Below the pieces are notes generated by a model, which was given only the letters and a program-made list of their open reading frames with translations, did no database searches and was not told where the DNA came from. From a virus: a stretch of 64,000 bases of DNA. Location of the stretch: positions 1 through 64,000 of IMG/VR virus record IMGVR_UViG_3300036863_000086; one strand, given 5' to 3'. Shown here in pieces: positions 1,519-63,397 of the stretch. Each line of letters opens with the position of its first letter. Within the stretch, counting starts at the first letter, position 1. Both the position numbers and the translations under genes were made by a program.

Positions 1519-3804
1519 ATGCAGAAGGCTCCCGGCGCGCAATGTGACGAGTGTCCATTGCGCGCCGAACCTTTCGTAGGAACATACGGCCCACTAGACG
1601 CCAAAATCGCTGCAATTGGCGAAGGCCCTGGGCTCCAAGAAGTCGTGTACAAAAAGCCATTCGTCGGAAATTCTGGTAAGCTACTGAAATCAGTCCTGAA
1701 GCACGCTGGGATCGATCCAGAAAAAGAGGTATGGTACACGAATGTCGTCCTCTGCCGACCGCCCGACAATGCAACCCCAACAAAAGAGGCGATTTATTGT
1801 TGCTCGGGGCGGCTTGAAAACGAACTGCAACAAAGGGCACCAGAGAAAATTCTCGCTCTGGGTGGCACTGCCGCAAAAGCGCTGCTTAACACTTCGACTG
1901 GAATCATGGCGCTCCGGCCTGGCCCACCAAGACCGCTGGCTGCGCACAACTGTGAAATTATCCCGACAGTTCACCCGGCAGCATGCCTTCGGAGTGGAGA
2001 CTACTTTCCATTTCTTGTTACCGACATCGGCAAAATCAATTTCGAACCATCAAGCTGGACGCCACCTCGATACCTCGTACCCCACTCGGAAAGGACGGCT
2101 TTATTCGCCATCCGATGGCTCAGCAAATTCAACGAACTCTCAGTAGACATCGAGGTAGCAGTTGAGAAAGACCTGGCATTCGAACACCCATCCAAATACA
2201 GCATTCTCTGCATTGGGATCGCTCCATCAGAGTCTGCTGCGATTGTTCTTCCGAGCAGCGTTCTTTGGTTTCAAACTGTTATTCAAGCTCTTCGAGGGCT
2301 CCTCAAGAAATCGAAGATAATTGCGCAGAACGGGAAGTTCGATATCCCTGGTCTCTCAAGGATCGGGGATTTTGAACTTTACGCAGATACTATGTTAATG
2401 CACTACGCTTCGGATGAGCGTGGTGGAATCCACGGCTTGAAAGTGATGGCTCGTGAGTATCTCGGAGCACCCGACTACAGTGCAAGAATTAAACAATACA
2501 CAAAAGGTTTGGACGGTTTCGCGGGTATACCGCGTGACCTCCTGCATGAATATAATGCCTACGATGCCACACTCACGTTCGGACTATACAGAATTTTTGA
2601 ACGGCAACTACATCATTCAGGTCTGTCCAGTCTGCATGCATTCTTGGTTCAAGCAAGCAATGCCCTAATCCAAGTAGAAACCGAGGGGGTGCTTGTCAAT
2701 GAGGACTATCTGCAAGAACTTGATCGGGACTATCAGGATCGACTTTCGTCACAGGAGAGCGCACTTCAGAAATGGGTACAGAACCCTCGGTCCACTCTTC
2801 AAGTTCGATCCGCTCTCGCTGAACTTGGAGTTGAAACGGCATCAACAGATGTGTCCCATTTGCAGGCTATACACGCATCCATGGGACAATACGAGGGTTC
2901 ACCCGAAGCAGCAGCAGTCAGCGAATTTGTTTCGGCTTTATTAAAATATCGAAAGGACCAGAAGGTACATGGAACCTACATCAAGGGCATCGCCAAAAGG
3001 CTCTACAACGGACGTTGCTATCCTACGTATCTTCTACATGGAACTACCACAGGGCGCCTCTCGTGTAGAAATCCAAACCTTCAGAACATTCCGCGCGGAT
3101 CGGCGATACGCAGACTTTTTGTTGCAAGTCCTGAAAATAGTCTGGTTCAAGCCGATTATAAGCAGGGAGAGCTGCGAGTCATTGCTTGCCTTAGTCGGGA
3201 GCAGTTTCTCGCTGATATTTTCAACGAAAAGCGTGACCTACTCAGCGAAATTGCTCGACGATTCTATGGTCCTAACTTTACAAAAGAGCAGCGAGTAAGA
3301 GCAAAGAACCTCGCGTACGGAAGCTGCTACGGGGCAGAGCCTCTTCGGCTCACAGCATATGAGGGCGTTACCCTTCAAGAAGCTGCTAAGTTTCAATATG
3401 AATTCTTTGAATTCATGCCAAACGTACGACGTTGGCAAGTTGATACACGAGAGCAAGTCTTGAAAGGCAACGACCTCATCACGGCATTCGGGCGCCACCG
3501 ACGGTACACGCTGATCACGAGAGAGAATAAAAAGGATATACTGAATGAATGCCTTGCTTTTGTCCCGCAGAGTACGCTTAGTGATATCTGTTTGTCTAGT
3601 CTTATCCGTCTGGTACATGAGGGGTTTCACCCCCGCATTACTGTCCATGATAGTATTGTGGTTGAGTGCCACAATAGCCAGGTTGCACATACAAGTGAAG
3701 CTCTTTCGCAGATTCTCCCGCAAGTAGCCAAAGAAACTTTCGACGACTATGTTCCATTCCCTGTCGACGTAAAAGCTGGAAGGAGTTGGGGTGACCTTGA
3801 GTGA
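1519..3804 (+). CDS. polA: DNA polymerase family A with N-terminal family-4 uracil-DNA glycosylase domain and 3'-5' exonuclease
   Basis: UDG4 motifs CDECPL, GEGPG, PFVG.SG, TNVVLCRPP, HPA; exo DIE/NGKFD/YNAYD; pol motifs TGRLS..PNLQNIPR, QADYKQGELR, RAKNLAYG..YG, VHDS. Confidence 0.95.
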   Translation: MQKAPGAQCDECPLRAEPFVGTYGPLDAKIAAIGEGPGLQEVVYKKPFVGNSGKLLKSVLKHAGIDPEKEVWYTNVVLCRPPDNATPTKEAIYCCSGRLENELQQRAPEKILALGGTAAKALLNTSTGIMALRPGPPRPLAAHNCEIIPTVHPAACLRSGDYFPFLVTDIGKINFEPSSWTPPRYLVPHSERTALFAIRWLSKFNELSVDIEVAVEKDLAFEHPSKYSILCIGIAPSESAAIVLPSSVLWFQTVIQALRGLLKKSKIIAQNGKFDIPGLSRIGDFELYADTMLMHYASDERGGIHGLKVMAREYLGAPDYSARIKQYTKGLDGFAGIPRDLLHEYNAYDATLTFGLYRIFERQLHHSGLSSLHAFLVQASNALIQVETEGVLVNEDYLQELDRDYQDRLSSQESALQKWVQNPRSTLQVRSALAELGVETASTDVSHLQAIHASMGQYEGSPEAAAVSEFVSALLKYRKDQKVHGTYIKGIAKRLYNGRCYPTYLLHGTTTGRLSCRNPNLQNIPRGSAIRRLFVASPENSLVQADYKQGELRVIACLSREQFLADIFNEKRDLLSEIARRFYGPNFTKEQRVRAKNLAYGSCYGAEPLRLTAYEGVTLQEAAKFQYEFFEFMPNVRRWQVDTREQVLKGNDLITAFGRHRRYTLITRENKKDILNECLAFVPQSTLSDICLSSLIRLVHEGFHPRITVHDSIVVECHNSQVAHTSEALSQILPQVAKETFDDYVPFPVDVKAGRSWGDLE

Positions 3805-52034: not shown

Positions 52035-52415
52035 ATGGCCAAGTCAGCTTTCGAGGACGCAATGGGCGCAACGGAAAAAGCGTACGCTCACCTCGTTGCG
52101 CCCAAGCGCCCCAAGGGTACCCCTCTTCGCAATATCCGCATCTCGGACGAGCTCTGGGCGGCGGCCGGGAAAGTGGCCAAAGCGACCGATCAGGACATAT
52201 CGAGCATGATCCGCGGACTGCTCGTCGAGTACATCGGGGAGTTCGAGGACGAAGAGGAGCTACGTCGTAACCTCGCCGAAACGGTCGAGATGATCGAGAT
52301 CGCCAAGCCGGACGAAGAGGTCGAGCCCGACGAGCGAGTCAAAGCGTGGAGAATCCGCCAAGCCGACTTTGACGCTAAGCTCCGCGAAGAGGCCAAACTG
52401 GCCAAGCGTCGCTAA
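52035..52415 (+). CDS. ribbon-helix-helix DNA-binding protein
   Basis: TPLRNIRISDELW.AA...A......S.MIR.LL..Y. Confidence 0.75.
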   Translation: MAKSAFEDAMGATEKAYAHLVAPKRPKGTPLRNIRISDELWAAAGKVAKATDQDISSMIRGLLVEYIGEFEDEEELRRNLAETVEMIEIAKPDEEVEPDERVKAWRIRQADFDAKLREEAKLAKRR

Positions 52416-52426
52416 CCTCCCAGATC

Positions 52427-52460
52427 GGAAAAAGCCCCTCCCGAGGGGGCTTTTTCCTTT
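52427..52460. terminator. bidirectional intrinsic terminator
   Basis: AAAAAGCCCCTC-CCGA-GGGGGCTTTTT between convergent genes. Confidence 0.85.
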
Positions 52461-52506
52461 TTGTCCATCTTGCGACGGCCGGCCCGTCGCAAGACCGGAT
52501 TGTCCG

Positions 52507-52965
52507 TTACGAGAGCTGATCGTGGTGTGTCTCGTATGGGCAGCTCGAGTCTTGTATGCAGTCTGTTCCTCTTGGGCAACATACGCCGTTTCGGCAACAT
52601 AGCTTGTCTCGGATACTTGCGCGGTATACACGCTCTCGTGCTGATATGTCTGATAACTTCACAATATCGTATGTGGAGAGATCGTACCAAAGGTTCAACC
52701 AGCGCTCTCTGCGCCACTTGCTCTCATTGCCTGGATGACGAAACTTTTCAGGTTCGTGCGTATCTTCCGCTAAGTTCGCATCGCGCAGCCAATCAGAAAA
52801 GACTATATAGTGCCATTTCTGAGGGCTGCTACGTTTGCTAGGATTGGGAAACATACCCCTTCTGCGCCAGTCTCGGAGGGTATAGTCGCTTATGCAAAGA
52901 GCGTCGCATATGTCATCAATTGTGAGGAATGTGTTGCCAACGCGCTCTGGCTCTTTTGCGAACAT
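52507..52965 (-). CDS. MerR/excisionase-like HTH DNA-binding protein
   Basis: LTIDDICDALCISDYTLRDWRRRGMFPNP; GAGGA RBS. Confidence 0.65.
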   Translation of the reverse strand: MFAKEPERVGNTFLTIDDICDALCISDYTLRDWRRRGMFPNPSKRSSPQKWHYIVFSDWLRDANLAEDTHEPEKFRHPGNESKWRRERWLNLWYDLSTYDIVKLSDISARERVYRASIRDKLCCRNGVCCPRGTDCIQDSSCPYETHHDQLS

Positions 52966-53079
52966 TCTGGCCGTTCCTCTCTATGAAGATTAGACGATGA
53001 GAGCGCACTTTAGACGATTACCGCTCTCTGACAGTCTACCATAGGTTCGGCGGTTCGGTTGTTTGTGATGGGCCTGTTA

Positions 53080-53205
53080 ACAACACGTATTATAACTGGT
53101 TTAGAACTACAACTACTACTTTACCACCTATAATATGCCCTGTACTATATATATACTAATAGTATAGTATAGTAGTATAGGTACATAATTGAGTAGAATA
53201 TTGGT
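53080..53205. other. AT-rich low-complexity tract (candidate origin or terminus)
   Basis: TACTATATATATACTAATAGTATAGTATAGTAGTATA in a mid-GC genome. Confidence 0.45.
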
Positions 53206-53436
53206 CAGAACATGCCATTCGCGGAAAATAAAGGACACTCATATGCTCGTATCGGCATATTGGCTTGTCAAAGGCTTGTCAAAGTGTATGCACTTGCAGA
53301 AGACGCCATGACTGGTCACAGCAGGCCATATGTGGTCACCCGTCTCCCTATTGCCACTCATCACTGTCATTAGTTGACATGAGCGGTCAATTTTCGTCAA
53401 GACGCACCTTAGATCACATATGTCTGAATAGACCCG

Positions 53437-53466
53437 TTGCGCTCTGAGCGCCAGCTCTGGGACAAT
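53437..53466 (+). promoter_or_regulatory. putative early promoter
   Basis: TTGCGC-N18-(TGG)GACAAT immediately before the structured leader. Confidence 0.45.
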
Positions 53467-53471
53467 GGACT

Positions 53472-54215
53472 CTCCGGGCGGAGTATGCCCGGAGCGGTCC
53501 TTTGAGAACTACAGAGCGAGCGAGACCGGCTCTCCCGAGGGTTCCCTTGGGGAGCTGGGCGACCACCAGTCCCTTTCAGGGGAGCAGGAGGCCGAGACCA
53601 TCCGGGGAAGAGTGCATCCCTGGCAGGCCCAGCACGACCGTCAACGACGGATCAGGGAACCGCCAGGACACGCCGGAGCCGAAAGTTTCGCGGCATGTCG
53701 GATCACGCGCCTGGATTTTCCGACCAGGGAATGCCGACCATGCGACAGGGTTTCGATTAGGTTTCTCGCTCGCAACGTTCATTGAGAACTAAATAGACGA
53801 GAAAAGAGTAGCCGGAGAAATTGGCTTTGTGGTTTGCGCTTGATGAATACGTCGCGCAAACAGAAATCGGAATCAGTTTGTAGTTCTCGGAATTCTGGAC
53901 AAAGCTAAAAGTACCCTTGAGTTTGAGGCAAAAGCGCGAGCGTAGTGAAAACTTTAAAAGACCGAATTGCGATGATGTTCCTTAGCTGATTGATGTTGTG
54001 AGTCTCAGCGAAAGATTGAAATAGGGAATGAGCGAGGGTTGTCTGCGCGAAGACCGTTCGAGAGTCAATGACGTGCAATTCGTCATTGCTAGCGCAGTAG
54101 GAATAACCCTACTGTGGCATAGGCCACGATAAACTGACAAAGGCTACTCGCCACGTTTCAATAAGCCAAAGCTACAGCCGATTCACAATAGGCCGTAAAA
54201 CTAGGCGAAAGTGGA
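53472..54215 (+). ncRNA. long structured leader / candidate large ncRNA with two boxA-like motifs
   Basis: No credible ORF; stems 53516-25/53764-73, 53806-13/54142-49, 53501-15/53877-91; TTGAGAACTA at 53502 and 53782. Confidence 0.5.
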
Positions 54216-54321
54216 AATGCACATAGGCGCGTATTGACTGGCCATTTCGAGCAGTGAAAACCAAAGCATCAATTACTTATGGTAATGGTGCAAAGCTCGA
54301 AAAAAGAAAAGAGAAACCGAA

Positions 54322-54630
54322 ATGGCTGTTGAGATCAGGTACACGGACGACGAGGGCAACCTGCTGTTCACCACGCGGGACATGACTGTGGTGGAGAACT
54401 TCCAGAAGGCCGAGAAGAAGGTCGCGGCGCTGGCGGAGGCCGAGAAGATCCTGGCGCGGCGTGAGCGCCTGGTCAGGGAAGCGCTCGACACGCTGGCCAA
54501 GCTGCGGAAGGACGTCACCGAGGGCCTGCCGGACGGCGCGCGGGTTGCCAAGTCTGGCGACACCTACGCGATCACGTTCGAGCCGGAGGACAGCGCCAGC
54601 GCGCCGAGCGAGAACGGCGCGGCCAGCTAG
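54322..54630 (+). CDS. early hypothetical protein
   Basis: High-GC codon bias; enclosed by IR pair. Confidence 0.75.
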   Translation: MAVEIRYTDDEGNLLFTTRDMTVVENFQKAEKKVAALAEAEKILARRERLVREALDTLAKLRKDVTEGLPDGARVAKSGDTYAITFEPEDSASAPSENGAAS

Positions 54631-54796
54631 AACGCCGAGATCGGCGACAACTTCATACCGGGCGGCCGGCCCCAGCACCACGTAACACCGTAGCAACCGC
54701 AACAAAGCGAAATGGCCAGCCAATTCGCGCCTATGTGCAAAGTACGCGAGTTTTTGAAACGTGGATACATGCTTCCTAAGCAGGAAAAGCGATTTT

Positions 54797-54816
54797 GCCG
54801 CGCAAGCGGCTTTTTT
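54797..54816 (+). terminator. intrinsic terminator
   Basis: GCCGC-GCAA-GCGGC-TTTTTT. Confidence 0.7.
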
Positions 54817-54903
54817 GCTTTTCCAAGGGAAAGCAGGGAATTGAGAGTTTCTCGCGTCCACTCCAACAAAAAACAACTCCAATTGGTAAGTGGAGTGATC
54901 CAG

Positions 54904-55080
54904 ATGCGAAAAACCCTGTCCGACCTGTTTCTGTGGGCTGGTTGGACACTGGCCGATAAGGCCAGCCCAACAGAAACTCCAGCTTCCATGGACTACAGGG
55001 AAATGCTGCCGTTGTCCGAGCGGCATTTCTACGTCCAGCCGGTCGGGTTCCAGCCAAGCAAAAAGCGGGTGTCGGCATGA
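54904..55080 (+). CDS. early hypothetical protein
   Basis: GGAG RBS, ATG 54904. Confidence 0.55.
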   Translation: MRKTLSDLFLWAGWTLADKASPTETPASMDYREMLPLSERHFYVQPVGFQPSKKRVSA

Positions 55081-55295
55081 GACTCGCGGTTGCTGTGGTT
55101 GTGGTCGGTTGGTTGCTCGTGTTCGGCGCGATCGCGCTGCACACGGACTGGTCGGAAACGTCGGCTCCAGCAACGCCAACGTACGTCGTCCAGAACAACG
55201 AGGTCCAGACTCCTGTGGGAATGTGCCGAACGGAAGATTCCTGTTCGGTCGATTTCCACGGTGGTCAGTACACGATCCGGCAGGTGACGCCATGA
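55077..55295 (+). CDS. small membrane/secreted protein
   Basis: N-terminal TM helix; ATGA overlap. Confidence 0.6.
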   Translation: MRLAVAVVVVGWLLVFGAIALHTDWSETSAPATPTYVVQNNEVQTPVGMCRTEDSCSVDFHGGQYTIRQVTP

Positions 55296-55390
55296 CGCCG
55301 GAACAGCAGATTTTCGGGATTTACCTGATCCTGGTGATCGTGATACTCCAGCGGAAACTCTGGCATGACTTTGGCAAGCACGACACCTAG
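55292..55390 (+). CDS. small membrane peptide (32 aa)
   Basis: ATGA overlap; hydrophobic core. Confidence 0.45.
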   Translation: MTPEQQIFGIYLILVIVILQRKLWHDFGKHDT

Positions 55391-55506
55391 AGAGACCAAC
55401 AACGTGAGGAACTTTCAATTCCCTGCTTTCCCACGCTTGGGAGCATGTTTTGGCGAGTCATTTCCAACCTCTGGAAGAAATTCCAGGGAAAAAAGGAAGT
55501 GACAAG

Positions 55507-55962
55507 ATGAAAGCCAAGTGGTTTTACGACGTGGAGGTCGTGACCAATGGTGCTGTTTCGTCGCACCAGACGTTCACCTCCGACTGCTTCGACGGGGAAA
55601 CAGACCCGATGGCGGAATTCATCGCGGACGTGGAACACTTCACGAGCGGGTCCAGCAAGCCAACGGAGGTTTTCGTCCAGTTCCACGAGCACGAGCCGTT
55701 TTCCGATGGCGAGGATGTCTGTGGTCAGTTTGAAACGGACGGGCACCCGACCTATTCGTGGAACATGGAAAACGACGTTTCCAAGGTTCCGCAGAAGGTT
55801 CATGTGGTCGACTGGACTGGCGAGGATTTCCCGCATGGCGAGGAATGGTCGCCAGGGTTCGCGCCGTACGTGTTTCGCTGGACGTTCGATGACGACGCGG
55901 ACGTGGGGTTTCCGTGGTTTCCGCCGTCCATGACGTTTCGGTGGGATCGGCGCCATGACTGA
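55507..55962 (+). CDS. early hypothetical protein
   Basis: AAGGA RBS before ATG 55507. Confidence 0.65.
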   Translation: MKAKWFYDVEVVTNGAVSSHQTFTSDCFDGETDPMAEFIADVEHFTSGSSKPTEVFVQFHEHEPFSDGEDVCGQFETDGHPTYSWNMENDVSKVPQKVHVVDWTGEDFPHGEEWSPGFAPYVFRWTFDDDADVGFPWFPPSMTFRWDRRHD

Positions 55963-56137
55963 ACTTTCCACCAACCTGGAAACCGGCGAAACCTACAAAG
56001 CGAGGTTTCGGCGTCCTGATGGCGAGCTGGAAACGAAAGAATTCTCCGGCGCCGATTGGGATGCGTGCTGGAAGATGGCTGTTGACCATGCAGCCGCTTC
56101 GAACAGCAAACTCCAGATGTTCAAGATCCAGAAGTAA
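55955..56137 (+). CDS. early hypothetical protein
   Basis: Coupled ORF inside IR pair. Confidence 0.6.
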   Translation: MTELSTNLETGETYKARFRRPDGELETKEFSGADWDACWKMAVDHAAASNSKLQMFKIQK

Positions 56138-56241
56138 CGACGACGGTAACGATGCGAAATGACCCGCCAAAACATGCTCTCAAGTTTGCTTGGAAGCCTC
56201 TTGAATGAGCTGCTGCGCGAAATTCCAAGAAGGAGAACGAC

Positions 56242-56637
56242 ATGGGAATTTCCGCAAGGATGATGCCCGACGTGTTTTCCGAGAACGGGAAAACCTACCA
56301 CGAGCACCTTGTTTCGGTGCATGCGAGCGAGCGGTCCAACTACGAAATCCGGTGTTCTTGTGGGCACTTGGGTTTCGTCGCGTCGGTGTCCGACGTGTTC
56401 GCGGCAAACTGCGCCCTTGACCACGTCAAGGAAATGCAGCCGGACTCCGGCTATCAGGAAGCCGTTCGATCTGCTGTAACCGAGTATCACGCCAGGAAAG
56501 ACTTCGAGCAGGACTTTTCGGAGAAGATGATCCTCCTGAACAGAGGACTCCACCCCTGCAAGAAAGTTGCAGATGGCCAGCACTATTTTTCGGTGGTGAC
56601 TGGCATCTGCCACGCCTGCGGCGCGCTGGAGAAGTAA
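56242..56637 (+). CDS. early hypothetical protein with Cys/His motifs
   Basis: AAGGAG RBS; CSCG..H, CHACG. Confidence 0.7.
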   Translation: MGISARMMPDVFSENGKTYHEHLVSVHASERSNYEIRCSCGHLGFVASVSDVFAANCALDHVKEMQPDSGYQEAVRSAVTEYHARKDFEQDFSEKMILLNRGLHPCKKVADGQHYFSVVTGICHACGALEK

Positions 56638-56748
56638 CTCCAAACGCGCAGTAACTCATTCATGAGGGTTCCAAGCGTTGCTTAGGAAGCTGTAGAAAGC
56701 TGGAAATGAGGGTTTCTCGCTCCAACTGGTAACGATGCAAAGGAATGC

Positions 56749-56922
56749 ATGATGGCCGAGAACCCTGAGAACCCCAAGGATGGTTTGGCGTCGATTGTCG
56801 ACGTGAAGAACTTCTTCGAGTACGAGAACATCTCGAAGTTCCGCGCCGACTGGCAGAAGTTGTCCGACGTTGACAAGGTGCAGCTCCGGCTGGGCATCGG
56901 CGAGGGTACCCTGACCTACTGA
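56749..56922 (+). CDS. early hypothetical protein (57 aa)
   Basis: Read manually; AAGGA RBS; ...DVKNFF...FRADW..LSD.DK.QLR.GI..GTLTY. Confidence 0.65.
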   Translation: MMAENPENPKDGLASIVDVKNFFEYENISKFRADWQKLSDVDKVQLRLGIGEGTLTY

Positions 56923-57054
56923 GTTTTTCCACGCGAGGAACCTTCATTTCCAGCTTTCTACTGCTCAAGTAGCAAGTTAACGGGATTGTCAGTGTGCGGG
57001 ATACATGCATTGGTTGGCTCCTCCACGAACAACGAACAACGAGGAGAACAGCCA

Positions 57055-58461
57055 ATGGCAAACCTACTATTTCCCCGCAGCAAGCCTCCGTCATTTTCTC
57101 GTGCCAACCCAACCACGATGGACCTCGAAAGGATCATCGAAGAAATCGCGGACGATCCTTTCCAGATGGACACCGGCATGCGGATCATGATGAAGCGGAA
57201 GAAGGAGTTCAACAACGAGCTGGCCGCAAAACTGACCGGGATCGCGCTCAACCCCGTTTCCAAGGCGTACCTGGAAAACCGCCTCGACGATATCTGGTCC
57301 GCGTCGTCAGGGAGGATCGTCCTTGGCAATGCCGGAACCACGACCATGCCGGAAGTCATCATCGGCAGCGGTTTCCACGCTGCCGTGTACGCCGCGATCC
57401 GGGTCCAGGCGGGATTTCCCAAGCCATTCGTGCTCGAACGAGGAAAGCGCGCTGGCGGCGTGTTTGCCGTTCCTGGGCCAGCGTTCTTCCTGAATTCGCG
57501 GAACCGCCCAGGCGGAATCGGGCTGGCAGGAGATTCCGGCGCAAACCCAAACTACCTGCCCGGCGCACCGATCCAGACCGCGAACATCTCCAGCGGCGAC
57601 TACCAGACCAACGCGGACATGGCGCTCGTGATCCGGCTGACACTCGCCAAGTACGCGAACGTGCTCACGGAGTTTCCTGTCAGCGAAGTCGATTACTTCG
57701 CCGAGCGATACACACTCCTTTCGACAGGTGGTCGGAAACTCCAAGCGTCTCGAATCATCGACGCGCGCGGACTCGGCGACCCGCTCGGCAAGACCACGGC
57801 GAACGGAACAACCATCCTGACGTTTCCGCAGTTCATGGAAAGGATGGGCAGCGAAACCTGGCCGCTGCGGGATATTCGTCGTGCGGCAGTGCTCGGCAGC
57901 GGCGATGCTGCGCGGTGTTCGCTGGAAGCGTTGCTCGGAATTGGTCCACTTCCGGCAATGTCCATTCCTGCGCTCGACATGGTCGATCGGGTCGACGCCT
58001 ACGGGGAACTTCCCGACACGATGGAATCATGGTGCGACCGGGAACGTGGCCGGTACAACAAAATCGGCCGATTCCTCCGGCCGGATCGGTTCGGCATCAA
58101 GCGGTTGAACGTGTACGCGGATGGCGAGCGGCCGTCGCCAGTTTCCATCCCGAACGAAACGGTGCTGGTGAACGGCCGCAGCTACGACCTCGTCATTCTC
58201 GCAACCGGAAATCGTGAGGAGTCCGTTCCCGGCCTGGGAACGTCCAGCGACTTCGAACGCTACAACGTTAGCGACGTTGCAGTCGCCACGCGGAGTTACT
58301 ACTCCGGTGGCGACCTTTTCCGAGTTGGACCGCACGCGCGGCTCGGGTTTTCTCGGCTGGAGCGGAATGCCGGCGTCGCGGAAATCCCCAACAACGCGGT
58401 CTCGATGTTCCGGCTGGCCAGCAAAACCGCCACGCTCGCAGCAACACTTCCCGGCATCTGA
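57055..58461 (+). CDS. FAD/NAD(P)-dependent oxidoreductase (two Rossmann motifs, monooxygenase-like)
   Basis: VIIGSGFHAA...VLER...GG; AVLGSGDAA; YDLVILATG; GAGGAG RBS. Confidence 0.7.
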   Translation: MANLLFPRSKPPSFSRANPTTMDLERIIEEIADDPFQMDTGMRIMMKRKKEFNNELAAKLTGIALNPVSKAYLENRLDDIWSASSGRIVLGNAGTTTMPEVIIGSGFHAAVYAAIRVQAGFPKPFVLERGKRAGGVFAVPGPAFFLNSRNRPGGIGLAGDSGANPNYLPGAPIQTANISSGDYQTNADMALVIRLTLAKYANVLTEFPVSEVDYFAERYTLLSTGGRKLQASRIIDARGLGDPLGKTTANGTTILTFPQFMERMGSETWPLRDIRRAAVLGSGDAARCSLEALLGIGPLPAMSIPALDMVDRVDAYGELPDTMESWCDRERGRYNKIGRFLRPDRFGIKRLNVYADGERPSPVSIPNETVLVNGRSYDLVILATGNREESVPGLGTSSDFERYNVSDVAVATRSYYSGGDLFRVGPHARLGFSRLERNAGVAEIPNNAVSMFRLASKTATLAATLPGI

Positions 58462-58740
58462 ATCACTACCGGGTAACTGGTGCCAGCCAATGCTTGCATC
58501 CTTCACAACGACAGTCCCGTTTACTTGCTACTTGAGCGCTGGACTTTTCAGATGGACCACAGAACAACGCGATATGTGCTGCGCTCTGCGTTTGAGGAAC
58601 GTCAAGGTTGGAGCAACCATAAAAGACACTCCACTTGCCAAGGTTCCCGTTCTGTGGTCCTTTTGAGAAGTCCAGCTTGTTGTTTGGCGTTTGAAAGTGG
58701 ATTGTTTCGTCCGATGGTAAGAACAACAAAGGATGGAACA

Positions 58741-58941
58741 ATGAGCGAGTACCAGCGAAAGATTTCGGTCGATGACCTGCATGTCGGGACGTTCGTGAAA
58801 GTGCGCGACAACTTCGGCGGCTTGTGGTCGGCGGAAGTCATCGGATTCACCAGGAACGGAACGATCGAGTTCATCGTTTCTGGTGACGACAAGGTTCGTC
58901 GTGGCACGCTGACCACGATTGCAGAAATCGTGCAGCCATGA
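58741..58941 (+). CDS. small SH3-like beta protein
   Basis: AAGGA RBS; DL.VG..V.V. Confidence 0.55.
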   Translation: MSEYQRKISVDDLHVGTFVKVRDNFGGLWSAEVIGFTRNGTIEFIVSGDDKVRRGTLTTIAEIVQP

Positions 58942-59180
58942 CCACCATGCTGCATCGTAGGGTCGCTATGCAGAGCGTAGCGATCAAGGCGATGTTTTCC
59001 AAGGCCGAGATGCTCGAACTTCCACGGCGCGCGTTACTGGCGATGTTGAACGAGAACCTTCCGCTCGTTGATCCGAGCGATAGCAAGAAAGTTCGACTCG
59101 CTCGGATCGCCACCATTCAGGATCGAGTGAACCTCGCGCGATACCGCGCTGGCCTGAAAAGGTGGGAGCAACCACGATGA
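58938..59180 (+). CDS. hypothetical protein (tandem paralog 1)
   Basis: MFSKAEMLELPRRALLAMLNEN...QDR...LARY. Confidence 0.6.
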   Translation: MTTMLHRRVAMQSVAIKAMFSKAEMLELPRRALLAMLNENLPLVDPSDSKKVRLARIATIQDRVNLARYRAGLKRWEQPR

Positions 59181-59425
59181 TGCTCGTCGAAGAATTCCTC
59201 AAGTTGCTCGACGAGAAGATCGCCGAGCAGGACGTGAAGATTTTTTGGATGTTTTCCAAGGCCGAGATTTTCGAGCTGAATCGGCGTGAGCTGCTGGCGC
59301 TGTTGAACGAAAACGATCCAAAAGCGGAAGTCCAGGCTGTCCTGCAAGATCGGCTGGATGACGTGGCCGGCCGGGCGGATCTCGCGCGATATCTCGCCGA
59401 GCGAAAAGAAGCTGGTGCGGCATGA
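59177..59425 (+). CDS. hypothetical protein (tandem paralog 2)
   Basis: MFSKAEIFELNRRELLALLNEN...QDR...LARY. Confidence 0.6.
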   Translation: MMLVEEFLKLLDEKIAEQDVKIFWMFSKAEIFELNRRELLALLNENDPKAEVQAVLQDRLDDVAGRADLARYLAERKEAGAA

Positions 59426-59578
59426 TGCTGCCAGTCGCAGTCATCAAGGAAATCGAGTCCACCTACGCACTGCTCTGGGCTGACTGAATCAACCTCGAAA
59501 CAATCCACTTCCACGCGCCAAACAACAATCCAAAAGTATGTTGGCGGGTTTTTCCATGTCTGGTAAGGGAAGTGCGAC

Positions 59579-60061
59579 ATGGAGTTTCGCAAGGGTCCAA
59601 CACTGGACGAATTCTGTGAAATCGTCCAGAAGATTTCCGACGAGCGCTACGACAGCAACGTGATCGTCGGCGACTCGGAAACACTGTCCAAGAACGGAAC
59701 AACCTTCCGGGCGACGTTGCGCGTCAAGGATTCCAAGAAATTCGGCGCGAGAACATCATCGCGCGGCCGGCACACGCCAGCGGCAAGCTGGGAAGCGTTC
59801 CGCGATGTTCTCCGCGAGGTGTTCGACCGCTGGCCGAACACCTACGTTTCTTCGATGCTCGTGTTCATGCTGGGACTGTACGATCCCTGCGAGCATCGCA
59901 AGGCGAGCGGCGAACCGTATCGGCGCCACAAGGAACGGCATCGCCGGCGCGGCTACAACGGAAAAGCACAATTCGAGGAAATGTACCCTGAGACGGCCGC
60001 CGTCAATTGGGGTTCCCAGATATATTGGGCATGCCTCCCTGATCTTTCCATCGAGCGGTGA
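59579..60061 (+). CDS. early hypothetical protein
   Basis: AAGGGA RBS; inside IR pair. Confidence 0.65.
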   Translation: MEFRKGPTLDEFCEIVQKISDERYDSNVIVGDSETLSKNGTTFRATLRVKDSKKFGARTSSRGRHTPAASWEAFRDVLREVFDRWPNTYVSSMLVFMLGLYDPCEHRKASGEPYRRHKERHRRRGYNGKAQFEEMYPETAAVNWGSQIYWACLPDLSIER

Positions 60062-60065
60062 CACG

Positions 60066-60398
60066 ATGCCGGCTATCGTGACCACAGTGAGGGAAATCCC
60101 AACCGCGCCGTACTACGTTCTATCCAACGACAGATTCATGAGCGGTTGGGGCCGGGCGCATACATCGGGCGCGTTTGGAAATCCGTATCCCGACAGAGGG
60201 GCGTTGACCAACACCATCATCCTGCCGTGCGAAAACTGGACGGAAGCGCTGATTGTCAAGGAAAACGCCGAACGTCGTACCGATCAGACGAGAGTTCGGA
60301 TCGTCGTGAACAAACCGCGACTCCGTTCTGAGCACGTCTATTCGCTCCTGACAAGACTAACCGCAGAGTGGTGGTTCCAGCCGGGGGCGTTCAAGTAA
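60066..60398 (+). CDS. early hypothetical protein
   Basis: YYV..D.FMSGWG.A motif; ATG 60066. Confidence 0.65.
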   Translation: MPAIVTTVREIPTAPYYVLSNDRFMSGWGRAHTSGAFGNPYPDRGALTNTIILPCENWTEALIVKENAERRTDQTRVRIVVNKPRLRSEHVYSLLTRLTAEWWFQPGAFK

Positions 60399-60440
60399 CC
60401 AACGAAAAACCCGCCAACTTACTTTTGGAAGATCCGAGTA

Positions 60441-60947
60441 TCGTGCAATTAATTGGGAACAGTAACGGCGAGAATCACGATAGCTGAGAGCCCGTAAAAG
60501 GGAATATACCAATATCGTGATTAGGGCACGATCGCCCTGGGCCGGTCGGTTCAATCCGGCTGGATCGCAACCAAACAGCGGAAGAACAGAGCCAGCTTAA
60601 CCGCTGGCATCCGGTTACTGTTCCCAATTGATTGTACGACAAATTAGAATTGAGATAGGGAACGCACCCGGACGGCATAACCCTGCTAGGTTTGCTAAGG
60701 GTCCGCCGTAGCAGCGGAAACGGGATATAGAGGGACCGCCCTATCTCAAAACCACGCGCCTAGCTGCAAAACGGCCTCGGGCCGGATCTGGTTCTCAGCG
60801 TGGGTTCTAGGGAAGCACGAATAGGAGCTGGTAATAAGGCTTCCCAGCTAACTTTCGCAGGATCTAAGGACCACAGGGATGCAGGTCTACAACCGCATTT
60901 CGACAAAACCCAAATGGTGAGGTTTCGTCGTTATCCCTGTGGTCCTT
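60441..60947 (+). ncRNA. cluster of multi-branched structured non-coding elements
   Basis: Closing stems 60441-66/60614-39, 60650-60/60739-49, 60866-80/60933-47; T-loop-like GGTTCAATCC. Confidence 0.6.
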
Positions 60948-60983
60948 TGATTCTACGACGAGACAACGAACAAGGGTAAACAG

Positions 60984-61196
60984 ATGGATTTCTACCCGAT
61001 TTGGGGAGAACGGCTTTATGAGTCGTCCGATGGACGATACCGGCTTTCCAGAGATTCTCATGGGCGCTGGTGGATTCTCCGCGTCCGGCAGTTCAACTCC
61101 GGTCCAAAGACGATGCTGGTTCCCTATTCGTTCCGAACGCTCGATAACGCAATCGAAGCGTTCGATGATGGAACCGTCAAAATTTGGGAACGATGA
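60984..61196 (+). CDS. hypothetical protein
   Basis: AAGGG RBS. Confidence 0.55.
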   Translation: MDFYPIWGERLYESSDGRYRLSRDSHGRWWILRVRQFNSGPKTMLVPYSFRTLDNAIEAFDDGTVKIWER

Positions 61197-61203
61197 CTCT
61201 GCG

Positions 61204-61275
61204 GCGCCTGTACCTTAATGGAAAGAGGGATAGTTTCCTAAACTATTTGTGCAGGTTCGATTCCTGCCAGGCGCG
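61204..61275 (+). tRNA. tRNA-Arg(CCT)
   Basis: GCGCCTG/CAGGCGC; ATAGT-TTCCTAA-ACTAT; GTTCGATTC. Confidence 0.85.
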
Positions 61276-61276
61276 C

Positions 61277-61419
61277 AAGAAACTTGGGCTAGCCGCGTAC
61301 TCCACTACGGTAATGGGAGAGCTATACGAAAGTGCCCGGCAACCTGAAAGCGCCTTACGGTGTATCCACCTTACGGTGCATCCATGTCGACGCCGGTAAG
61401 CCTTCCGCCCAAGTTTCTT
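61277..61419 (+). ncRNA. structured non-coding element between tRNAs
   Basis: 13-bp closing stem AAGAAACTTGGGC/GCCCAAGTTTCTT. Confidence 0.45.
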
Positions 61420-61425
61420 TTTCAT

Positions 61426-61503
61426 GGCGAGAGTAGCTTAATTAGGTAAAGCGCTTGCTTGTGGCGCAAGTTATTGCCGGTTCAAATCCGGTCTCTCGCC
61501 CCA
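61426..61503 (+). tRNA. tRNA-His(GTG) with G-1 and encoded CCA
   Basis: CTTGC-TTGTGGC-GCAAG; 8-bp acceptor. Confidence 0.9.
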
Positions 61504-61504
61504 A

Positions 61505-61582
61505 TGGTCGGTAGCTTAATTCACTCGGCAAAGCAGCGGTCTCCAAAACCGCGAGATGGGGGTTCGAGTCCCTTCCGACCAG
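61505..61582 (+). tRNA. tRNA-Trp(CCA)
   Basis: GCGGT-CTCCAAA-ACCGC; GTTCGAGTC. Confidence 0.9.
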
Positions 61583-61586
61583 CTAC

Positions 61587-61661
61587 GGCGTGGTAGCTCA
61601 GTTTGGTTAGAGTGCTGCCCTGTCAAGGCAGAGGTCGCGGGTCCAAATCCCGTCCACGCCG
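61587..61661 (+). tRNA. tRNA-Asp(GTC)
   Basis: CTGCC-CTGTCAA-GGCAG; variant T loop TCCAAAT. Confidence 0.88.
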
Positions 61662-61684
61662 CAATTGTGGGGAAAGGACAATCA

Positions 61685-61876
61685 GTGTCAAAGCTAAAAG
61701 TTACTGTAACTGGAATTCTAGATGTTCCAGAAGATCAGCTAGAACCGGCATACGAAGCATCCTCAATCCAAGAAGCCGCCAAAAACTTAGTCGCCTGGTA
61801 TAAAGATGGCTCAGCAGACCTTTTTGCTGACCTATCCGTGGTGGATGAGTTGAAGGTAACTGTCGAGCCGGTATAA
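61685..61876 (+). CDS. hypothetical protein (63 aa)
   Basis: GAAAGGA RBS before GTG 61685. Confidence 0.6.
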   Translation: MSKLKVTVTGILDVPEDQLEPAYEASSIQEAAKNLVAWYKDGSADLFADLSVVDELKVTVEPV

Positions 61877-61977
61877 TTCGGAGTTGCCAGACCCGAGTCT
61901 CCATACCTGCGTACGAGGATTTCTGGAGATAAGCCGAAAACCTAAAGCGCTACGGGAAAGTAGGCATCTGGCACCAA

Positions 61978-62051
61978 GCGCCATTCTGCTAAACGGATGA
62001 GGCTACCACTCTCTCACGGTGGAGGTAGGAGTTCGAATCTCCTATGGCGCG
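61978..62051 (+). tRNA. tRNA-Glu(CTC)
   Basis: CCACT-CTCTCAC-GGTGG; GTTCGAATC. Confidence 0.85.
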
Positions 62052-62082
62052 CGAAATTGTTGGACTGGAAGGAAGTTGAACA

Positions 62083-62214
62083 ATGGATAAGATAGTGCAA
62101 ATCGAGATCGAATATGACGACGGCAGTACGGCTTTCTGGACAATCAAGGAAGACGACGAACGGCTGGCAAAAGTCGAGGAAATCCTCGGAACGCCAGATC
62201 AGCAGAATCTCTAG
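62083..62214 (+). CDS. small acidic protein (43 aa)
   Basis: Read manually; AAGGA RBS. Confidence 0.55.
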   Translation: MDKIVQIEIEYDDGSTAFWTIKEDDERLAKVEEILGTPDQQNL

Positions 62215-62220
62215 CAACAT

Positions 62221-62293
62221 GCGCGGTTCGGCTAATGGTTTAGGCTATCAGACTTTCAATCTGATGATGCGGGTTCGAATCCCGTACTGCGCA
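62221..62293 (+). tRNA. tRNA-Glu(TTC)
   Basis: TCAGA-CTTTCAA-TCTGA; GTTCGAATC. Confidence 0.9.
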
Positions 62294-62650
62294 CAATGGG
62301 GCCGGACGACCGGATAAGCATAGGAACGAGCGCGCTAAAGTTTTGGGTCGGTTGGGCGCGAACGTGAGATCGTCATTCCTATCGCCCCAGATTTTTGCTG
62401 AGAACACAGGCCCGCCGGGTACGCGCAACGCCAGTGTGGTTCAACGGTTGCATTCTGGAACGATGGACGTGGTTAGGGACCGACATCGTGCCGATTGGTC
62501 GCGTACTGCGCCCCCTTTACGGAAACTTCTAGATCCATATCCGCGCGGATTTAGAAAGTCCATGAAGGACCGAGCCTTATCATGGGAGGGTTAAATCGAG
62601 ATGGCGGCATAACTCCCTCCCACCCTTTTCGGAAACCCAAGGATAGCGAA

Positions 62651-62926
62651 GTGCAGATCATGTTTCACTACATGGATAAGCGACGGAACCACGAAATCGC
62701 CGACGCTCCATGGCGAAAGTTGGACTTCGTTCCCAACAACATGCTGCGCGATCTTGACCATTGGCACGATGCAGAAACATTTCCATTCTACGACCCGGAC
62801 CTAGATGCCAGAGACATCGCCGACGTGCCACATGGTCATTGGATCGCGCACAAGCACGGCAGATACCAAGAACACGCGCATTACGTTCTCTGCACGGAAG
62901 ACCATGAAAGTGAAGGAGCTAAATGA
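62651..62926 (+). CDS. His/Asp-rich hypothetical protein
   Basis: AAGGA RBS; start 62651 or 62660. Confidence 0.55.
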   Translation: MQIMFHYMDKRRNHEIADAPWRKLDFVPNNMLRDLDHWHDAETFPFYDPDLDARDIADVPHGHWIAHKHGRYQEHAHYVLCTEDHESEGAK

Positions 62927-63014
62927 ATTACGATCCGTACGATGACGACGAGCCAATTGACAGCGGCGACGAAGTTGGTCCATAGCCATCACGAAAGTTT
63001 TTAAAAGGTGAGTG

Positions 63015-63320
63015 ATGGCGACTGTTCGAATCAGCGAAAAGGATCTCCGAGATCCAAGATTCAAGCGCCTGCGAAACATGGTCAAAGAAGCAGGCGGGCT
63101 TGATGATGAGAATGACGAGGTTGTCGACAAGGAAGAATTTGGCGATCGACTTGTCCCACGAGAACTGACACTTTCGGAGCGCATCGAAAGCATTACGTTT
63201 GTGAAGCAATTCTCGGGCTACAGCAAAGAGCAAGTTGATGCGTTTCTCGATGATGTCGGTCGGCACGTCGAAAAGATGGAAAAAGAAATCCGTCGGCTTC
63301 GTCGGCGACTCGGAAGGTAA
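63015..63320 (+). CDS. DivIVA-domain-containing protein
   Basis: ITFVKQFSGYSKEQVDAFLDDV...E...LR matches DivIVA N-terminal F....GY...EVD.FLD. Confidence 0.7.
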   Translation: MATVRISEKDLRDPRFKRLRNMVKEAGGLDDENDEVVDKEEFGDRLVPRELTLSERIESITFVKQFSGYSKEQVDAFLDDVGRHVEKMEKEIRRLRRRLGR

Positions 63321-63325
63321 CAAAA

Positions 63326-63397
63326 CCGGGTGTCATTCAACGGTTAGGATCTCTGCCTTCCAAGCAGATGATGCGGGTTCGATTCCCGTCACCCGGT
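63326..63397 (+). tRNA. tRNA-Gly(TCC)
   Basis: TCTGC-CTTCCAA-GCAGA; GTTCGATTC. Confidence 0.9.

Follow-up and report, generated by a model that had tools for sequence, protein, structure and literature searches.

Motifs of the actinobacterial rRNA operon antiterminator in the putative early leader of an uncultured soil phage

A 1.35-kb non-coding gap in the genome of an uncultured soil phage, represented by the linear IMG/VR record IMGVR_UViG_3300036863_000086 (72,476 bp, estimated to be 82% complete), contains two sense-oriented copies of a motif that can be securely identified, by sequence comparison, with the boxA-type element of the ribosomal RNA (rrn) operons of Actinomycetota. The DNA analysed here, referred to as the window, comprises bases 1-64000 of that record. 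With moderate confidence we propose that the region at 53.47-54.32 kb is the untranslated 5' part of a rightward early transcription unit, in which the two rrn-type sites would load Nus factors of the host and prevent termination. The function is taken to be that of the rrn element because of the identity of the motif, its non-coding setting, its orientation and its recurrence in similar places in other phages. Processive antitermination through boxA is textbook knowledge for phage lambda and for rRNA operons, and in the literature searchable here no early antitermination signal was found for the thousands of sequenced actinobacteriophages.

The motif copies and the rrn element of Actinomycetota

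The motif copies and the elements next to them are the following:

53101-53111, plus strand: additional copy of the motif core, TTAGAACTACA, in AT-rich DNA, overlapping the -35 position of TATAAT 53129-53134
53472-53494, plus strand: hairpin with an 8-bp G+C-rich stem and a 7-nt loop, in which CTCCGGGC (53472-53479) pairs with GCCCGGAG (53487-53494)
53497-53516, plus strand: boxA-like copy 1, GTCCTTTGAGAACTACA from 53497, agreeing with the rrn leader consensus at 16 of 20 positions
53777-53796, plus strand: boxA/boxC-like copy 2, GTTCATTGAGAACTAAA from 53777, agreeing with the 16S-leader consensus at 18 of 20 positions
53877-53891, plus strand: "anti-boxA", a complement of the boxA core, TTTGTAGTTCTCGGA from 53877, with 10 perfect pairs with 53504-53513 that can be extended through G-U pairs

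The first-pass annotation, made from the sequence alone, had described the hairpin, the motifs at 53497 and 53777 and the complement at 53877, all of which are present at these positions; the copy at 53101-53111, the fourth copy of the core, was absent from its list. The hairpin stops 2 nt short of copy 1, that is, at the place of boxB in the rrn order boxB-boxA. In the minimum free energy (MFE) fold it is lengthened to 53467-53500, and copies 1 and 2 are both unpaired linkers. Copy 2 differs from GTTSTTTGAGAACTCAATAG at 2 positions, a sequence that was matched with 3 or fewer mismatches in none of 100 dinucleotide shuffles of the window, and it retains the AAUAG part of the element, including the trinucleotide AUA. 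In the entire 72,476-bp record GAGAACTAMA is found only at 53504(+), 53784(+) and 53879(-).

A pattern modelled on copy 2, three of its positions being N, was run against one genome per species from 185,579 species and matched at least 120 stretches; 80 loci among the matches listed all belong, as read from the record titles, to Actinomycetota (Arthrobacter, Nocardia, Mycobacterium, Corynebacterium, Brevibacterium and Kocuria among others). The leader consensus GTT(G/C)TTTGAGAACTCAATAG was drawn from 81 genomic instances, and among those listed 63 read GTTGTTTGAGAACTCAATAG and 14 read GTTCTTTGAGAACTCAATAG. The site of the 16S primer 27F lies 65-416 nt downstream of the motif in 34 of the 81 instances listed, most of the others being truncated by the end of the contig or locus, and at two loci with long flanks (L047 and L101) the 3' end of 16S is found ca. 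1.7 kb downstream of the motif. A second version of the motif precedes 23S in the spacer of 7 of the 18 loci displayed, four of these 18 ending before the spacer. In Paenarthrobacter and Arthrobacter this spacer version is GTTGTTTGAGAACTACATAGTGGACGCGAGCA, which has TTTGAGAACTACA and the following GCGAGC in common with copy 1, and it is to this pre-23S version that copy 1 is nearer. The likeness to actinobacterial rrn leaders that had been pointed out at first is thus borne out.

Variants of the type TTGAGAACTA(A/C)ANAG are held by 45 of 401 sampled Actinomycetota genomes, against 4 genomes for a reversed control pattern (the tally of 45 takes in four unpublished genomes, on which no specific claim depends). 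The 15-mer of copy 2, TTGAGAACTAAATAG, occurs verbatim in 17 of these 401 genomes and also in an rrn locus (L107), 65 nt before 16S, and the 15-mer of copy 1, TTGAGAACTACAGAG, in one of the 401. None of the 401 genomes has both 15-mers, and for this reason no host is proposed.

The leader boxA, taken as a 28-mer, was also tested against the 16S-23S spacer in the 18 rrn loci between L047 and L120 that were suited to the analysis, and in 18/18 it pairs with a complement located 105-350 nt past the 3' end of 16S (dG of -31 to -40 kcal/mol, z of -6 to -12). The rrn leader element thus doubles as the 5' strand of the 16S leader-trailer helix. According to PMC2724277, boxA binds NusB and NusE, and the element adjoining boxA is a specific NusA site in the rrn operon of M. 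tuberculosis, in which the trinucleotide AUA is critical.

The phage region resembles the actinobacterial rrn antiterminator (boxA plus boxC, as in the nut site of M. tuberculosis rrn) in the sequence of its two copies, in the hairpin before the motif, in the presence of a downstream complement and in the putative long untranslated RNA that follows the motif, as well as in having two tandem versions, as are found before 16S and before 23S. On the other hand, the phage site leads into protein genes, the spacer-like version comes first, so that the order is reversed, the copies are only 280 nt apart, and the complement pairs weakly.

Recurrence of the motif in other actinophages

A 71-nt rrn leader from Arthrobacter, compared by blastn with 50,697 phage records (E up to 10), matched 77 of them. 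Actinophage names are borne by 52 (35 of Mycobacterium, 14 of Streptomyces, 2 of Gordonia and 1 of Nocardia), and the other records match a different part of the query. Among the best 40 of the 77, 35 rows correspond to actinophages, some of them being RefSeq and GenBank copies of one phage; all 35 lie on the minus strand and within ca. 1.5 kb of the right genome end, and 34 of them carry no annotated feature. The unannotated right ends of PegLeg, Manuel and Scherzo carry the motif in sense orientation, 350-500 nt ahead of the first leftward gene, and Manuel has two copies, 406 nt apart. The copy-2 pattern was found in 49 stretches of IMG/VR. For ca. 23 of these the contig has 45% G+C or more and the motif shows an rrn-like continuation, AATAG, mostly followed by T or C and then G; several of these contigs (L189, L191, L203 and L213) carry two copies each, 400-770 nt apart. 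The other 26 stretches were taken as unrelated, since they are in low-G+C contigs with the pattern mostly inside long open reading frames (ORFs).

Some copies lie within tRNA arrays. The second copy of PegLeg (54636-54650) is in sense orientation between the genes for tRNA-Trp and transfer-messenger RNA, at the head of a tRNA array; in Bongo (5563) the motif, also in sense, follows closely on the first tRNA of the array, as in PegLeg; and in an uncultured contig (L186, 1837-1856) a sense-oriented motif is found inside an array of 18 tRNAs. These copies are the best argument that the motif would act at the RNA level and in the sense direction. In another IMG/VR contig (L201, 2332-2380, minus strand) the motif adjoins two tRNAs and its flanks are identical to the Arthrobacter rrn leader; this copy may be host DNA at a prophage border.

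Between the window and all these phage and rrn loci there is nothing in common beyond the 20-23-nt motif, and it is therefore the motif itself that is kept. A blastn search of 53000-54900 against the phage records rendered nothing at E 1e-5, and relatives were sought through the flanking proteins in IMG/VR and by ORF alignment in JGI metagenome contigs, with none found in either. Double-motif DNA patterns were also tried and discarded: their 42 matches in IMG/VR were all chance by blastn, and there were 0 in metagenome contigs. A literature search, with subscription journals and supplements outside it, rendered no paper on such sites in actinophages, and sites of this kind, close to the host consensus, have apparently not been described in actinophages so far.

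The putative leader, its predicted folds and the first gene

The gap extends from a leftward helix-turn-helix gene (52507-52965) to a rightward ORF (54322-54630). All well-scoring ORFs in 54322-61196 are on the plus strand, and this co-oriented block ends in a tRNA array, so that the putative leader is sense-oriented and upstream of a plus-strand block that spans 54322-63397. The features of this part of the window are:

52507-52965, minus strand: divergent gene for a 152-amino-acid helix-turn-helix protein, left border of the gap, with weak excisionase/MerR-like matches (PHROG phrog_66, E 1.1e-4)
53516-53773, plus strand: predicted domain 1, closed by GCGAGCGAGA/TCTCGCTCGC, ca. 64% G+C and without coding signal
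53806-54149, plus strand: predicted domain 2, closed by GAGTAGCC/GGCTACTC
54151-54249, plus strand: 5' strands of a long-range helix (54151-54164 and 54218-54249)
54322-54630, plus strand: first gene of the unit, encoding a 102-amino-acid protein; supported by coding score, no known family
54708-54764, plus strand: 3' strands of the long-range helix (54708-54739 and 54751-54764)
54783-54824, plus strand: hairpin resembling an intrinsic terminator, with core GCCGCGCAAGCGGC (54797-54810) followed by TTTTTT; the stem can be extended to 19 nt
61204-63397, plus strand: array of 7 tRNAs, with which the co-oriented block beginning at the leader ends

The gap had been described at first as lacking a credible ORF, and no frame in 53400-54290 attains the coding score of the neighbouring gene, nor do any of the 8 small ORFs of the gap match Pfam or PHROGs. 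When the gap was compared with the covariance models of Rfam 15, no match reached the gathering score, and only the tRNAs of the window score; with E relaxed to 10 the only rows, eukaryotic and small-RNA ones, were at chance level, so that GOLLD, ROOL, RNase P and the group I and II introns, which had been named as candidates, are unmatched.

The two closed domains of the first-pass annotation were reproduced by MFE folding. Their closing helices, however, are of only 10 and 8 bp, and these closures are weak because chance supplies helices of such length here, five perfect 10-bp inverted repeats being listed in the same 2.2 kb. Fold z-scores on the plus strand are modest (-2.8 for domain 1 and -2.6 for domain 2), and the opposite strand folds equally well or better (-3.6 and -3.1, respectively), which weakens the closed domains. 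A new, large structured RNA made of two closed domains may exist, but it is not supported by these folds.

A strong predicted helix surrounds the first ORF. Two pairs of strands make it up, 54218-54249 with 54708-54739 (32 nt, 94%) and 54151-54164 with 54751-54764 (14 nt, 93%), and the fold of 54140-54830 has a z of -9.6, with the terminator hairpin at its end. The 32-nt inverted repeat that encloses the ORF had not been listed at first. Of the RNase III stalks proposed then, only one formed by this helix would be well supported, whereas those stalks that involve boxA and anti-boxA (z -1.8) or the closures of the domains are weak. The intrinsic terminator reported downstream, at 54797, is present. 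The listed 122-amino-acid ORF at 54712-55080 spans the terminator; the real gene is likely to start at ATG 54904, behind GGAG, and to encode 58 amino acids.

The 102-amino-acid protein is acidic by residue count, and its relatives, with 99% and 73% identity, come from soil metagenomes only. Its AlphaFold 2 model consists of two beta-hairpins around a 46-residue helix (mean predicted local distance difference test score, pLDDT, of 81.8) and has no fold match in PDB at E<=0.001; in Pfam the protein gives only a sub-threshold row, DUF2138. A contig that is ca. 80% alike in the ORF fuses 54621 directly to 54711 and retains 30 nt of the right arm of the helix, a weak hint, from this one sequence, that the arm may be conserved. 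In a second contig, from one run, the terminator region 54753-54811 has given way to a diverged sequence, with 13 substituted letters and 11 gap letters over 119 nt.

DNA nearly identical to that of the phage is present in soil metagenome runs of seven studies. Contigs from 4 soil runs were aligned to the stretch; they represent near-identical strains only, and the uncovered parts of X5-X7 are uninformative. Contigs of three further soil studies agree with the window throughout 53384-54293, and one 2.3-kb soil contig has 10 differences to the window, nine of them in 53284-53383 and none in the next 1.2 kb. The segment 53284-53383 may be a variable regulatory or immunity segment. An invariant leader next to a variable upstream segment would fit constraint, and recent common descent fits equally well. 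One of the nine changes strikes the TTGACA at 53374-53379. Directly before the variable segment there is a perfect tandem pair of the 11-mer GGCTTGTCAAA (53262-53283), which is operator-like, and farther upstream an AT-rich palindromic stretch (53129-53190, ca. 36% G+C) has a perfect TATAAT at 53129-53134 and a motif copy at the -35 position, so that it could be a promoter or an origin.

The helix-turn-helix protein at the left border matches HTH_23, HTH_17 and MerR_1 of Pfam, all under cut-off. A gene for an Arc-like repressor is found at 52035-52415, and a strong hairpin at 52427-52457 (13 pairs, with T runs on both strands), which resembles a two-way terminator, separates it from the end of the helix-turn-helix gene. 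The terminase of the phage reaches no more than 37% identity with the terminases of Arthrobacter and Microbacterium phages, and the family A DNA polymerase, at 1519-3804, is fused to an N-terminal domain of the uracil-DNA-glycosylase superfamily.

Proposed mechanism and alternatives

In the mechanism that we propose, the motifs in the nascent RNA would recruit NusB/NusE and NusA of the host to RNA polymerase, without the need for a protein like lambda N. The modified polymerase would resist Rho along ca. 850 nt of untranslated RNA, pass the terminator at 54797 and continue via the early genes to the tRNA array ca. 7 kb downstream. The 32-bp helix around the ORF 54322-54630 would be an rRNA-type leader-trailer helix that RNase III is likely to cleave, and its formation would be aided by the tethering of the 5' RNA to the polymerase. 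The antitermination complex of E. coli rrn is said to act as an RNA chaperone, with rRNA leader-trailer helices reportedly among its context. The phage structure resembles such helices in that it has 32 bp and 14 bp around an insert of 458-586 nt, downstream of boxA; it differs from them in that it encloses mRNA. The sense-oriented recurrence of the motif in unrelated actinophage leaders and tRNA arrays lends support to the mimicry of an rRNA operon suggested by the first-pass annotation, while antitermination itself is inferred; as a whole, the observation made in that annotation is partly confirmed and its interpretation partly supported.

Comparison with lambda gives both likeness and difference. 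As at nutL and nutR, which are described in PMC2724277, a boxA related to that of rrn is found at the start of the early operon, before the first gene and a terminator. However, the phage region has the rrn order, hairpin then boxA, whereas lambda has boxA then boxB, and the phage motif is near the full consensus of the host. Moreover, no arginine-rich protein like N was found in the phage; the first ORF is acidic, is modelled as folded and has no family above cut-off. A nut site of the lambda type was thus discarded, given the hairpin that precedes boxA and the nature of the first ORF.

A further parallel is offered by the leader RNA made from Pleft in cluster A mycobacteriophages. According to PMC5712189, L5, D29 and StarStuff make a very abundant, stable and processed RNA of ca. 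500 nt from the right-end early promoter, about 90% of transcripts stop at the end of the leader, and the host suffers toxicity from the region; antitermination goes unmentioned in that paper. The likeness consists in several hundred non-coding nt that separate the first early gene from, in their case, the early promoter. The leader carries the rrn motif in some phages of cluster A (Scherzo, Ugenie5, Adzzy, Odin and Ph8s). Their leader, however, has no sequence similarity to the window and L5 is without the motif, so that the parallel with the L5 leader is only positional.

Several results weigh against antitermination at these sites. A scan of 52400-55400 rendered 0 promoter-like sites, and the promoter that had been placed ahead of the hairpin was therefore not recovered. 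Copy 1 has 4 mismatches to the rrn leader consensus and is devoid of AUA. The boxA/anti-boxA duplex of the window (dG -26.8, z -1.8) was equalled by 9 of 200 shuffles, in comparison with z values of -6 to -12 in rrn, and 53384-54293, being invariant among the near-identical strains, shows no covariation. The layout of boxA, closed domain and boxA was not seen in Manuel, L189, L191 or L213, which show 0-5 closing pairs, and the right end of L5 has no motif at 5 or fewer mismatches. Finally, the copies at 53101 and 53879(-) make better sense as DNA sites or as partners in pairing than as nut sites: the former overlaps a possible -35 position within AT-rich DNA, and the latter is on the other strand.

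It could be the case that the four copies of T(T/G)AGAACTA(C/A)A are DNA operators, bound by a phage regulator of the helix-turn-helix or Arc-like type at promoters or as roadblocks similar to stoperators. They are clustered within 790 bp, in both orientations, and are found nowhere else in the 72-kb record, one of them overlaps the -35 position of TATAAT, regulator genes adjoin the region, and stoperators have been described in cluster A mycobacteriophages (PMC5712189). We nevertheless regard this explanation as improbable, since copy 2 agrees with the rrn element also outside the core (GTTC..TT and AATAG), the rrn motif is also found in tRNA arrays and in unrelated phages whose regulators are unrelated too, and spacings of 402, 280 and 96 bp are unlike those of clustered operators. 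Membership in the stoperators of cluster A was in turn rejected: these are many asymmetric sites, distributed genome-wide and in one orientation relative to transcription, as opposed to only 4 sites, all within 790 bp and one of them inverted. A shade less probable to us is that an abundant, stable leader RNA serves as a decoy that draws NusB, NusE and NusA off host rrn, thus damping ribosome synthesis, a role that would be compatible with antitermination. One untranslated RNA would hold two to three boxA copies, the very abundant and stable early leader RNA of cluster A phages is host-toxic according to PMC5712189, and the title of a work cited in PMC2724277 speaks of competition for a host factor at boxA; the lack of the motif in L5 itself speaks against a decoy, and copies in tRNA arrays suit antitermination better.

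That the motifs are only strands of RNase III stalks, as in pre-rRNA, which would cut the leader with no effect on termination, would agree with the pairing of the leader boxA with a spacer complement in 18/18 rrn loci, with the complement at 53877-53891 and with the strong helix that encloses the ORF. This is distinctly improbable in our view, because the duplex of boxA and anti-boxA in the window is weak and the strong helix forms without involvement of boxA; a nearby complement was sought in the window only. We attach very little probability to a relic or to chance, that is, to a decayed piece of host rrn or to a G+C-rich part that is a decayed or unrecognised gene. It is true that 53400-53780 has a G+C content of 62-65%, like the genes of this phage, and open ORFs of 106 and 96 amino acids, but the similarity to rrn loci ends at 20-23 nt, there is neither coding signal nor family match, the invariance of 53384-54293 contrasts with the 9 changes in 53284-53383 of one contig, and the motif recurs in other phages.

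A wider version of the antitermination proposal, which we consider unlikely on the sequence evidence at hand, is that actinophages in general carry self-sufficient nut sites of the rrn type, and that in this phage these are combined with modules closed by leader-trailer helices, stable RNAs cut by RNase III and a draw-off of Nus factors. Such sites would turn the ribosomal antitermination complex of the host onto phage early operons and tRNA arrays. The two non-coding domains and the one mRNA, each closed by a helix, would be folded by the tethered complex like pre-rRNA, and RNase III would cut the modules into stable RNAs, which could possibly draw Nus factors off the rRNA operons of the host.

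The reading of the region as an early leader with rrn-type antitermination sites can be put to a direct test with isolated motif-bearing phages in laboratory hosts. If it is true, a host-derived motif of 20 nt would be a simple landmark for the annotation of early transcription units of actinophages, and there would be a mechanism by which long untranslated leaders and tRNA arrays escape Rho. Moreover, the motif gives a hint of the phylum to which the hosts of this and similar uncultured phages belong.
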